Made by a program: the position numbers and the translations under genes
The notes under the pieces: generated by a model
What the model was told of the DNA's origin: nothing
What the model saw: the letters and a program-made list of their open reading frames with translations, nothing else
The model's database searches: none
Assembly (NCBI GenBank): GCA_963782445.1
Contig: CAWAJM010000001.1
Span: 2,485,285-2,549,284, forward strand
Reading direction: 5' to 3'
DNA length: 64,000 nucleotides
Origin: an uncultured Gammaproteobacteria bacterium
GTDB taxonomy: Bacteria > Pseudomonadota > Gammaproteobacteria > Steroidobacterales > Rariloculaceae
Shown: positions 35,656 to 38,508 of the stretch, in pieces
Position numbering within the stretch: the first letter of the stretch is position 1
Layout: every line of letters begins with the position of its first letter

Positions 35656-36618
35656 GTGAAGACCTTGTCGTCGAGTCTTGCCAAGCTCTCGATCGAGCAG
35701 ATCCGCGAACGCTATGCGCGTGAGGACCTCTCGGTCTCGCCGCAGCTGCTGAACAAGCTCAAGCGCGATCCGCGCCGCGGCGTCCGCCGCCTCTATGAGA
35801 CGCTGCTGAAGCGCTACGAGCGCGAGCGGGCCGAAAAGCTCCGCCTCGACGCCATGTTGAACTTCGAACGCGTTTTGTGGCGTTCGGGCGTCGGCCGCAT
35901 TGCCGGCGTTGACGAAGCCGGCACGGGACCGCTCGCGGGCCCGGTCGTCGCGGCCGCGGTCGTATTCCCGCCGCACACCGAGCTTGCCGGCATCGACGAT
36001 TCCAAGCGCCTCGACGCGACGCAGCGCGCCGAGGCAGAGCGCGCGATTCGGGCAGCGGCGGCCGGCGTCGGCGTCGGCGTCGCCGAGGTCGAAGAGATAG
36101 ATCGCATTAACATCTATCAAGCCGCGCTGCTCGCCATGCGGCGCGCCGTCGAGGCACTCCCCGAGGCCCCGGAGCACGTGCTAGTCGACGCCCGCAGCAT
36201 TCCGGGCATCCCGATCCCGCAGAACGCCTTCAACAAGGGCGACGGCATGGACTTCTCGATCGCCGCGGCATCGATCATCGCAAAGACGCATCGCGACCGG
36301 CTCATGGACGCGCTCGCCGTACGCCATCCCGGCTACGGCTTCGAGCGTCACAAGGGTTACGGCACGCCGGAACACCAGGACGCCATCCTCCGGCTCGGCC
36401 CGTGCCCCATTCACCGGCGCTCGTTCGCTTTCCTGCGCGAGCTTCGCGGGGAGTACTCGGCCTTGTTCTACGATCTCAAGCAGCGCCTCGAGACGGCCGC
36501 CGACGCAGACGCGCTCACCGCCTTCGAAACCGCGTTCGCGGCCTGCCGCGAGGCGCTCGCCGACGACGAGCAGCGCAAGCTGCGGCTCGTGCTTACGCGC
36601 CGCTGGAAGGCAATCTAG
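35656..36618 (+). CDS. rnhB: Ribonuclease HII with N- and C-terminal extensions
   Basis: 'AGVDEAG.GPLAGPVVAAAV', 'DDSK', 'INI', 'KGD', 'SIAAASIIAK', 'KGYGT', 'HRRSF'. Confidence 0.93.
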   Translation: MKTLSSSLAKLSIEQIRERYAREDLSVSPQLLNKLKRDPRRGVRRLYETLLKRYERERAEKLRLDAMLNFERVLWRSGVGRIAGVDEAGTGPLAGPVVAAAVVFPPHTELAGIDDSKRLDATQRAEAERAIRAAAAGVGVGVAEVEEIDRINIYQAALLAMRRAVEALPEAPEHVLVDARSIPGIPIPQNAFNKGDGMDFSIAAASIIAKTHRDRLMDALAVRHPGYGFERHKGYGTPEHQDAILRLGPCPIHRRSFAFLRELRGEYSALFYDLKQRLETAADADALTAFETAFAACREALADDEQRKLRLVLTRRWKAI

Positions 36619-36819
36619 CGCCGCTGCAATAGCGGCCGGCGGCGCGGTGGTACCCCACGCAGCGCGAGTAATCCGGCCGATCTACCAAAAATTCTCCTCG
36701 CCAGTCGGCCTCGTCGCGGACTTTAATGGCCGCGTGCCCGCTGGCCCGAGGTGCGCAAGGGCCGCCGCGGTCGGCGTTCGGCACATGCACGGAAAGCCGA
36801 AGGACAAGGAGGAAGTCCA

Positions 36820-37035
36820 ATGAGGGAACTGACGACGGTCGAGCTCGAGCTTGTCGGCGGCGCCGGCACGGTCGCGGATACGGGCAAAAGTCTGGCTTCG
36901 TTCGGCACGGCGCTCGTCGGCGTCGGCGGCATCATGGCGCTGGTTCCGGGGGGCCAGGTAGCGGGGCTCTTCGTAGCCCTGGACGGTGCCGTCTACGTCG
37001 GCGCGGGCCTGCTCCTGCAGATGATGGGCTCCTAG
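36820..37035 (+). CDS. Double-glycine-leader bacteriocin / class II microcin-like precursor (71 aa)
   Basis: RBS AAGGAGG; leader MRELTTVELELVGG followed by a 57-aa Gly/Ala-rich hydrophobic core with glycine-zipper-like spacing. Confidence 0.8.
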   Translation: MRELTTVELELVGGAGTVADTGKSLASFGTALVGVGGIMALVPGGQVAGLFVALDGAVYVGAGLLLQMMGS

Positions 37036-37057
37036 GCCGCGGGTTCGGAGCATTGCA

Positions 37058-37088
37058 GGGGCCGGCGGCGGCGCCCGCCGCCGGCCCC
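37058..37088. repeat. Perfect 14-bp GC stem-loop between the precursor and putative immunity genes
   Basis: GGGGCCGGCGGCGG-cgc-CCGCCGCCGGCCCC. Confidence 0.8.
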
Positions 37089-37102
37089 GCCCGGAGGGCC
37101 GC

Positions 37103-37357
37103 ATGCGCAAGGAACCGATTCCGTGGCTCGTCGCGGGCTACGCGCTGGCCGTGGTCGTCGCGGAGCTCTTCGGCGTACCCGGCTGGCTCGCGCACTTGCA
37201 CGTCATGCCTTGGGCGGGGCTCGCCGCCGGCATGGCCGGCTGGCTGGCCTACGAGAATGCGAGCCGGCCTTGGCGCCTCGCGTTGCTGGCGGGGCTGCTT
37301 GCCGTGTTCATGCTCTCGGTGCTCGTCATGCGGCACCGCATCCTGGACTCGCTCTAA
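37103..37357 (+). CDS. Small (84 aa) multi-pass membrane protein, candidate bacteriocin immunity protein
   Basis: RBS GGAGG; about three hydrophobic helices; directly downstream of and co-oriented with the precursor. Confidence 0.6.
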   Translation: MRKEPIPWLVAGYALAVVVAELFGVPGWLAHLHVMPWAGLAAGMAGWLAYENASRPWRLALLAGLLAVFMLSVLVMRHRILDSL

Positions 37358-37458: not shown

Positions 37459-38508
37459 ATGAAGTCGGCAATAATACTGAGCGGCTGCGCCATGGCAGCC
37501 GCAGGCCTATCGCTCGCCGCGGGCGTCGCCCGGGCACAGCCGGGGGTCGAATGCACGCGCGCATGCCTCGAAGGCTATGTCGATCGTTATTTCAAGGCGG
37601 TCATCGACGACGACCCGAGCGAGGTCCCGCTCTCCATCAACGTCAGGTTCACGGAGAACGGGCAACGGCTGCCGATCGGCGAGGGCCTTTGGAAAAGCAT
37701 GAAGGCGGCGGGCAAGTACCGGCTCTTCGTCACGGACGTGCCGGCCGGCCAGGTCGGCCTCATCACGACCGTCGAGGAGGACGCCCGCGATCCGGACAAG
37801 TCCATGCCGGCGGCCATGGCCCTACGCCTCAAGATCGTCGACGGCAAGATTGCGGAAATCGAGCAAATGGTCTTGCGCGATGCAATGACGGCGAAACGCA
37901 TCGAGGCCATGGGCGGCCCGCGCGACGCGTTCCTGACCGCGATTCCGCAGAGCCAGCGCATGTCGCGTCGAGACCTCATCGTGACGGCCAACGCCTACTT
38001 TTCGGGCATGCAGCGCAACGACGGCAAGGGCAATTATCCCTTCGCCGACGACTGCGACCGCTATGAGAACGGGGCACATACGACGAACGTCAAGCCGCGA
38101 GCCGGGCAGCAAGTGCCCGATCCGGCAACGGCGACGAGCTATTCCGCGACCTGGACCTGCATGCAGCAGTTCAAGTCGGGACTCCTACACTTCGTCTCGC
38201 GGATCCGCGATCGGCGCTTCGTCGCCGTCGACCGCGAGCGCGGTATCGTCATGGCCATCGGCTTCTTCGATCACATGGCCGGCGATACGCGCACGTTCGA
38301 GACGCCCAACGGCCGCACCGTCACGGCCGGCCCCACGCAGCCGTGGACGTGGTACATCTGCGAAGTGTTCAAGATCCACAATCACAAGATCGGGCCCATC
38401 GAGGCGCTGCTCGAACATCCGCCTTACGGCATGCTCTCGGGCTGGAGCAGCTATGCCGACGGGATGTCGGACCGTCCTCAGGACGTGACGGGGTACCCGG
38501 AGCAGTAG
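37459..38508 (+). CDS. Secreted hypothetical protein with tandem NTF2/SnoaL-like domains
   Basis: Signal peptide; 'CTRACLEGYVDRYF', 'FTENG', 'RYENG', 'RRFVAVDRERGIV'. Paralog of 11676-12605. Confidence 0.78.
   Translation: MKSAIILSGCAMAAAGLSLAAGVARAQPGVECTRACLEGYVDRYFKAVIDDDPSEVPLSINVRFTENGQRLPIGEGLWKSMKAAGKYRLFVTDVPAGQVGLITTVEEDARDPDKSMPAAMALRLKIVDGKIAEIEQMVLRDAMTAKRIEAMGGPRDAFLTAIPQSQRMSRRDLIVTANAYFSGMQRNDGKGNYPFADDCDRYENGAHTTNVKPRAGQQVPDPATATSYSATWTCMQQFKSGLLHFVSRIRDRRFVAVDRERGIVMAIGFFDHMAGDTRTFETPNGRTVTAGPTQPWTWYICEVFKIHNHKIGPIEALLEHPPYGMLSGWSSYADGMSDRPQDVTGYPEQ

Follow-up and report, generated by a model that had tools for sequence, protein, structure and literature searches.

Among the described systems closest to the locus analysed here are the class II microcins, whose leaders of 15-18 aa end in GG or GA and whose cores have masses of about 5-10 kDa. 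In the accessible text of PMC10233263, the 10 classical members have cores of 60-90 aa, and GA is a recognised form of the double-glycine motif, with cleavage after the Ala. The class IIa system of MccV (CvaC, Cvi, CvaA, CvaB and TolC) is described there as a 15-aa leader ending in GG or GA, a hydrophobic core of 5 kDa, an adjoining small membrane protein, and a C39-ABC transporter (CvaB, triad Cys32/His105/Asp121) working with an MFP and TolC, the precursor, immunity, transporter and MFP genes being in close proximity. Class IIb (MccE492, H47, M and I47) is chromosomal, with exporter-shared tailoring genes and a modified C-terminal Ser (PMC10233263). Acyl groups on ribosomal peptides are described elsewhere. 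The ligase-carrier-hydrolase sets NosI/NosJ/NosK and LclJ/LclI/LclK are tied to acyl-S-Cys in thiopeptides, and the nosiheptide and lactocillin study, in its accessible text, reports that transfer to the precursor was not observed in vitro (PMC5585349). The fatty-acylated RiPPs (selidamides, lipolanthines, goadvionins, lipoavitides and aphotorhaptins) are listed in the accessible part of a 2026 paper as N-acylated by GNAT-type enzymes, the selidamides using Gly-Gly leaders (PMC13647313). The described PBP-type thioesterases (SurE, Ulm16) use Ser to release a non-ribosomal peptide thioester by head-to-tail cyclisation (PMC11735501, accessible text), and Caulobacter CdzCDI combines type I-secreted small hydrophobic peptides with a small transmembrane immunity protein (PMC5380434, accessible text).

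We analysed a peptide cassette in a window of 64,000 nt, the whole stretch of DNA under study, together with the genome from which it comes (G000). Since named records grouping with same-family genomes bear the label Ca. Rariloculaceae, the window likely derives from that gammaproteobacterial family. By itself the cassette adds another pair to the class II microcin-like ones, which are now known to occur widely (PMC12219008, accessible text). The unusual element is the exporter cluster to which it points, apparently an undescribed acyl-transfer variant of microcin systems.

A two-gene cassette with a double-glycine-type leader

The strong ribosome-binding site, the 71-aa ORF and the co-oriented 84-aa ORF of the initial annotation proved correct in sequence and position (Table 1). 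Its description of the 71-aa ORF as hidden inside a longer called ORF is true for a longest-ORF caller, which gives an enclosing 94-aa frame from a GTG at 36751, but not for the public protein collection, where the 71-aa form is present. The AGGAGG lies 7 nt upstream of the precursor ATG, and the final 23 nt 5' of that ATG are identical at the orthologous locus of G009, a genome of the same genus. Both cassette genes are real and under purifying selection: codon comparison with the G009 orthologues gave a dN/dS of 0.20 for the 71-aa gene (Fisher p 9e-6; 0.19 for its core part) and 0.21 for the 84-aa gene (p 2e-6), against 3.5 and 4.5 in shifted and opposite control frames; rnhB gave 0.13 against its orthologue.

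Table 1. Features of the cassette and its flanks (positions in the window).
Feature	Position	Strand	Basis
Flank: ribonuclease HII gene rnhB, outside the cassette	35656..36618	+	NF000594 above cut-off
Shine-Dalgarno AGGAGG of the precursor gene	36807..36812	+	Sequence; conserved in G009
71-aa precursor ORF	36820..37035	+	
15-residue double-glycine-type leader ending Gly14-Ala15	36820..36864	+	Exporter-adjacent register, matrix score, homologues
56-aa hydrophobic core (GTVAD...QMMGS) plus stop	36865..37035	+	
GC-rich intergenic hairpin	37058..37088	+	Similar stem in G009
GGAGG ribosome-binding site of the 84-aa gene	37093..37097	+	Sequence; conserved in G009
84-aa membrane protein, candidate immunity protein	37103..37357	+	
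Flank: 349-aa protein with signal-peptide-like N-terminus, outside the cassette	37459..38508	+	

G009 carries the same four genes in the same order, with identities of 85% for the 71-aa and 82% for the 84-aa protein. At the same site in the congener G002 the flanks are present and both cassette genes absent; since rnhB and the 349-aa gene are 133 bp apart there and 840 bp apart here, the two genes were gained or lost as a unit. The 71-aa gene was found in 2/85 family genomes and the 84-aa gene in the same two only. Occurrence of the 84-aa gene independently of precursors, which the initial annotation had named as an argument against its own reading, is therefore not what the family genomes show. 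A recent horizontal arrival of the cassette is unsupported, the codon GC3 of the two genes (0.86 and 0.91) being equal to that of the flanks. Metagenomes supplied two further homologues of the peptide at greater distance (53% and 50% identity), and a profile search added no further one among 1089 candidates; for the loci of these homologues (P0005 and P0006), a metagenome scan gave one leader-only match (L066) and a genome scan none. No convincing paralogue of either cassette protein was found in the genome itself.

Neither protein matched the family libraries above cut-off. The Pfam MccV match of the precursor lies below it (E 0.028), and the ESM Atlas clusters nearest to the peptide are double-glycine class II bacteriocins (score 0.90). 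The 84-aa protein is strongly hydrophobic in two segments and basic in its C-terminal tail. A scan for promoters and terminators gave nothing on the + strand, and no sensor kinase or regulator was found adjoining the cassette. The intergenic hairpin is statistically weak (z = -2.2 here, -1.0 in G009); it could serve to adjust how much is made of one product relative to the other. As to the flanks, the RNase HII is of the long N-terminal form and has a helical-looking C-terminal extension of ~55 aa conserved in G009 and G002; the 349-aa protein is secreted-looking and has no family in Pfam or NCBIfam; its DNA finds matches in 9/9 congeners, and it has several paralogues.

The register of the leader was set by the 15-residue leaders of peptides beside C39 exporters in relatives, which have the form MR-x-L-[TS]-x-x-E-L-x-x-V-[SAG]-G-[GA]. 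Gly14 and Ala15 are invariant across 4/4 close homologues. C39 cleavage is predicted after Gly14-Ala15, giving a predicted mature core of 56 aa that starts GTVAD and has a mass of 5267 Da; in this register, the 57-aa core starting AGTVAD that had been proposed earlier is off by one residue. The double-glycine-type leader itself was recognised correctly, as judged from the exporter-adjacent register and from its matrix score. With a matrix built from 24 other leaders, to which homologues of this peptide contributed two, it scores 40.1 bits and the next best of 9,840,538 six-frame positions of the genome 16.6; with a broader matrix (40 leaders) it scores 32.5 and the runner-up 20.3. A degenerate DNA pattern for the leader was found at 27 places in 20/85 family genomes and its reversed control at none. 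Because of the 40.1 against 16.6 bits and the empty reversed control, occurrence by chance is excluded. The search for other ORFs with this leader, suggested at the outset, gave no other in the genome with the matrices or with a looser DNA pattern (one match), and the leader of the 71-aa precursor is the sole double-glycine leader found there.

The core contains no Cys, ends in Gly-Ser (LLLQMMGS) and has a net charge of -1. Its predicted structure is a helical hairpin with a VPGGQ turn (pLDDT 86); a fold search with this model gave nothing at E <= 0.001, the weak rows being generic hairpins.

A distant exporter within a ligase, carrier and Cys-enzyme module

By tblastn, the exporter, HlyD, ligase, carrier and hydrolase described below are absent from the window, in agreement with the earlier reading that it holds no transporter, HlyD or modifying enzyme. 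Export in trans, also proposed in that reading, is well supported by the gene content: the genome search that it recommended returned a single full-length C39-ABC transporter at C1:1.768 Mb, ~750 kb from the cassette (PF03412, E 1.7e-33), with an adjoining, divergent HlyD gene, and a TolC gene is present on C2 above cut-off. The triad of the transporter is intact (C26/H99/D115) and spaced as in CvaB. A second PF03412 match (C1:459639, 267-aa frame) is weak, its frame being shorter than a transporter needs. In a quick tree, the exporters of G000, G009, G003 and G006 group as one clade (SH-aLRT 99). No leader was found beside them in the fetched DNA, the contigs of G003 and G006 being short, and all four genomes carry a similar peptide and membrane gene away from the exporter (4/4). 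In G003 and G006 the peptide is followed by a four-helix membrane protein, on contigs apart from the exporter; its similarity to the cassette peptide has a profile probability of 90% with the leader included and is weak for the core alone (E 0.02-0.09). From this gene content it is very likely that the cassette peptide is a substrate of the one full-length C39-ABC exporter of its genome.

The exporter cluster of G000 spans ~C1:1,764,900-1,773,950 (L003:6943-15937). The exporter is flanked by a module of an AMP-ligase, a phosphopantetheine carrier and two beta-lactamase-fold proteins (Pfam AMP-binding, PP-binding and twice Beta-lactamase), a set found again in other members of the genus and of the family. 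Next to the cluster, G000, G009 and G003 have an Opp-type peptide importer. The solved structures nearest to the ligase are acyl-CoA synthetases, and a PPTase is present in the genome above cut-off. Both beta-lactamase-fold paralogues look cytoplasmic, retain the fold and the motif Lys, and have GCxxK in place of the family SxxK, that is, Cys for the catalytic Ser. Their best PDB sequence match is SurE (6KSU; GSVTK against GCVTK), and in a fold search an esterase (IS11) ranked first, level with SurE (model pLDDT 64). Among 103 aligned homologous domains the nucleophile column holds 47 Cys, 55 Ser and 1 gap, with Cys in 47/47 of the full Cys-type family members aligned; the Cys forms make up one side of a branch with support 96 (FastTree; 58 of 103 rows). 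Cys-type enzymes occur in 22/85 family genomes and in 0/399 other genomes drawn from the class.

All four module genes (ligase, carrier and the two hydrolases) are intact in G000, and their dN/dS values against G009 are 0.23-0.40. Their dN is 0.23-0.38 and their dS 0.9-1.4, deeper than the 0.5 of the cassette, so that the module dN/dS partly reflects older history. The second hydrolase of G009 is frameshifted near residue 350, and a small module gene kept in G003, G006 and G009 is absent from G000. A His-to-Ile change in the third motif of the first G000 hydrolase was considered as a correlate of Cys-less peptides and rejected, the Cys-ended G003 and G006 sharing it. A conserved uncharacterised protein of ~128 aa was seen in module loci of two phyla (L039:11143-11589, L177, L178, L103 and L104) and is absent from G000 by tblastn. 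Seen in G000 only, between HlyD and the first hydrolase, is an ORF without family that has a signal-peptide-like stretch (L003:8403-8978, minus strand).

Related enzymes also occur in other settings. A second, stand-alone CxxK gene is present in G000 (C2:152823-154304, L174) and in G009 (C1:4918518, L175); that of G000 is divergent from a TonB-receptor-like gene split over two frames and has no precursor nearby. In G017 a Cys-type pair lies beside a peptide importer, and the 16 kb there contain neither a ligase nor a carrier nor an exporter. The enzyme of Thermodesulfobacteriota loci accompanies an ABC exporter, AMP-ligases 22-26% like that of G000, a carrier and sometimes stand-alone condensation domains. 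The loci L102-L106 and L110 (labelled mostly Desulfatiglandales) combine an exporter, AMP-ligases, a carrier, a CxxK enzyme and stand-alone condensation domains with up to four Tyr-rich double-glycine precursors, possibly a ribosomal/non-ribosomal hybrid pathway. No description of a ligase/carrier/Cys-hydrolase module was found in the open-access literature searched; the supplementary microcin lists of PMC12219008 and PMC9746304 could include related peptides.

Terminal residues of related precursors and a proposed acyl relay

Among the best 80 of 117 that were kept from a scan of species genomes, full-length Cys-type loci numbered 27 and partial Ser-type loci 52. Double-glycine precursors were present in the fetched DNA of 20/27 Cys-type and, among the best 80 of 117, of 0/52 Ser-type loci; four of the seven Cys-type loci without one are on contigs under 11 kb. 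About 40 precursor sequences were gathered, Cys-ended and Ser-ended natural variants among them. In genomes with Cys enzymes, 20/26 unique gammaproteobacterial precursors have Cys as the last or penultimate residue, whereas in genus g13, where the Cys enzyme was found in 0/17 genomes, 0/9 precursors do, a contrast of three genera with one that is not an independent test. Most of the g13 precursors are nonetheless related in core sequence, and the background of a terminal or penultimate Cys in the genome of the cassette is 12/1322. Left out of this count were L087, with an early stop after 9 core residues and a frame behind it that ends without Cys, and two Cys-ended peptides of G002, where the enzyme was not found in a 450-contig assembly; G027 and G039, whose second hydrolase is absent and whose two precursors are not Cys-ended, were not pooled. 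In other phyla, 2/10 precursors end in Cys. Several relatives' precursors end in Cys-Phe or Cys-Val. The G020 in-cluster precursor has Ser exactly at the terminal-Cys position of its homologues, alongside an apparently complete ligase and hydrolase pair. Of the homologues of the cassette peptide, one close one ends in Cys, and P0006 is without Cys, like the peptide itself (P0001) and its orthologue (P0003).

The arrangement of peptide and membrane gene in the cassette is the family norm, since in module loci a membrane protein of 58-84 aa comes next after 13/18 gammaproteobacterial precursor rows, and a rhomboid-type protein after 2/18. Other arrangements were also observed. Peptides of 37-39 aa ending YY[AV][WF]C occur in four congeners (L061-L064, L057, L058 and L065); the exporter-side copy is followed by a rhomboid protease gene, a candidate for proteolytic immunity, and three genomes have an extra solo copy elsewhere with no membrane gene called behind it. 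In genus g13 (L073-L080, L083) a two-Cys glycine-rich precursor is followed by a proline-rich double-glycine peptide, a pair that in G021 lies beside an exporter without the module and may be a two-peptide system. In L091 and L093 (also L068, L069 and L082), two or three different cassettes, each a precursor plus a membrane gene, stand in tandem between hydrolase and exporter, spaced by ~1.1 kb.

We propose the following mechanism. The product of the 71-aa gene is likely the precursor of a class II microcin-type bacteriocin; it would be cut after Gly14-Ala15 and exported through the C39-ABC transporter, HlyD and TolC. Before export, the ligase would activate a carboxylic acid, probably one of fatty or otherwise hydrophobic nature, and load it on the phosphopantetheine carrier, a PPTase being present in the genome; the Cys enzyme would then pass the acyl group by thioester exchange to the C-terminal Cys of the peptide. 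A Cys nucleophile keeps the thioester level needed for S-acylation. By analogy with the Nos and Lcl sets, such a relay from ligase through carrier and Cys enzyme to terminal Cys is, taken jointly, probable for the family. In the cassette peptide Ser71 would substitute for the terminal Cys, and if the relay holds this substitution is somewhat favoured. In competing cells, the 56-aa hydrophobic hairpin would insert into the inner membrane. The 84-aa protein, which likely protects the producer, would block this insertion; that pair of steps is jointly quite likely. As a whole (a microcin-type precursor, exported in trans, likely acylated by the exporter-side enzymes, with the 84-aa protein protecting the producer), the proposal is a tentative one, held with a little under even confidence.

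An uncertain step in it is acylation of the cassette peptide itself, the core having no Cys and ending in Gly-Ser; judged from the sequences, it is possible rather than probable. Counted in its favour were that this is the sole leader-bearing peptide found for an intact set of module genes, the Ser of the G020 precursor and the Cys-ended close homologue; counted against it were the G009 frameshift, the small module gene missing from G000, the stand-alone Cys-type enzymes and the greater depth of divergence in the module than in the cassette. The earlier label 'unmodified' is nevertheless doubtful: it was read from the window, whereas a conserved module of ligase, carrier and Cys hydrolases surrounds the exporter. 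The surroundings of an orphan precursor do not suffice to call it unmodified.

The main alternative, which we regard as unlikely yet worth serious weight, is that the label was right: the cassette would encode a class IIa-like microcin that carries no modification and is exported in trans, together with its immunity protein, and the module would acylate only Cys-ended relatives, being idle, decaying or otherwise used here. Size, leader, adjoining small membrane gene and exporter all fit class IIa (PMC10233263, accessible text), P0001, P0003 and P0006 are Cys-free, and both the frameshifted G009 hydrolase and the gene missing from G000 are consistent with decay. This alternative has to accommodate, however, four module genes that are intact in G000 with a dN below full relaxation, a genome in which no other leader-bearing substrate was found, and G020, where ligase and hydrolases are likewise paired with a Gly-Ser-ended peptide.

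The peptide might instead be no toxin at all. Secreted as a signal, or serving as a structural peptide that aggregates at the surface, and with the 84-aa protein for a receptor or chaperone, it would fit the peptide importer beside the exporter, the net charge of the core, the three solo copies in the related genus peptide family without a membrane gene called behind them, and the reported capacity of microcins to promote biofilm (PMC13188072). We consider this improbable: no sensor kinase or regulator adjoins the cassette, cores and partner proteins are diverse between species, and the recurrence of a small membrane or rhomboid-type protein behind the precursor is a toxin-plus-immunity pattern. 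It is quite improbable that the peptide is a microcin whose Cys enzymes, instead of donating an acyl group to it, trim or transpeptidate its C-terminus, or protect the cell by hydrolysing peptides that arrive or are imported. Although the fold includes D-peptidases, ClbP and esterases, several relatives end in Cys-Phe or Cys-Val, stand-alone copies lie beside a TonB-receptor-like gene and a peptide importer, and an Opp-type importer adjoins the cluster in three genomes, this would leave unexplained why ligase and carrier are kept beside the enzyme in two phyla at 22-26% ligase identity and why Cys, suited to thioester-to-thioester transfer, is conserved in place of Ser.

Returning to the acyl relay, the cassette could belong to a class II microcin of a third type. 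Its double-glycine peptides would receive an acyl group, likely a lipid, on a Cys or Ser at the C-terminus, from a ligase-carrier relay whose last member is a SurE-like transacylase of beta-lactamase fold with a Cys nucleophile. A single hub for tailoring and export would serve interchangeable cassettes of peptide and immunity protein scattered over the chromosome, the one described here being the hub's sole client in its genome; this reading, too, is put forward tentatively. If the module acylates peptides, it would provide a new microcin modification beside the class IIb siderophore and a new GNAT-free route to ribosomal lipopeptides, and the SurE/beta-lactamase fold would have a natural branch that uses a Cys nucleophile and works on ribosomal substrates.

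Comparison with known systems

Among fatty-acylated RiPPs, the likeness lies in the acyl group proposed on a ribosomal peptide; the predicted site here is instead a C-terminal Cys or Ser, and no GNAT was found among the 10 exporter-cluster ORFs scanned. The Nos and Lcl sets share with the module an adenylating enzyme, a carrier and a hydrolase-fold enzyme directed at acyl-S-Cys on a ribosomal peptide (PMC5585349, accessible text). Their transferases are alpha/beta hydrolases of thiopeptide pathways, whereas the enzymes here have a beta-lactamase/PBP fold with a Cys nucleophile and an otherwise plain double-glycine substrate. The PBP-type thioesterases are the best sequence match and among the top fold matches of the Cys enzymes, which have the beta-lactamase/PBP fold with its motif Lys; unlike the described members, the module enzymes lack the catalytic Ser, having Cys in its place, and are located with ribosomal precursors.

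CdzCDI, to which the initial annotation compared the cassette, resembles it in combining a small hydrophobic peptide, secreted by a type I system (a prediction for the cassette), with a small transmembrane protein that confers immunity in Cdz and is an immunity candidate here. The comparison is weak: the Cdz toxin consists of two peptides with an extended GxxxGxxxG zipper, whereas the cassette encodes a single peptide with one GxxxG and no extended zipper, its G/A/V/I content is 54% against 75% for CdzC/D, and its exporter does not adjoin it.

With class IIb microcins the cassette shares a chromosomal location, tailoring-type genes at the exporter and a core ending in Ser. It differs in having no Gly/Ser-rich octapeptide siderophore tail and, among the annotated exporter-cluster ORFs, no siderophore-attachment genes; the enzymes there are an AMP-ligase, a carrier and beta-lactamase-fold proteins.

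As to class IIa, the 15-aa leader ending in Gly14-Ala15 and the 5267-Da core fall within the class II ranges, the 56 aa being slightly under the classical lengths, and a C39-ABC transporter with the CvaB triad spacing, an MFP and TolC are all encoded in the genome. In position, size, hydropathy and co-occurrence the 84-aa protein fits a class II immunity protein, its protective role being a prediction. Core homology to a characterised microcin was not found. Tailoring-type genes adjoin the only full-length exporter, unlike the unmodified class IIa systems, and the ~750 kb between cassette and exporter depart from the gene proximity described for the class (PMC10233263, accessible text), which lowers but does not exclude membership; the cinful survey, in its accessible text, scores exporters per assembly and not per locus. 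By the features compared, the cassette is neither class IIb nor Cdz, and would work like a class II microcin, which it matches in sequence in all but gene proximity.
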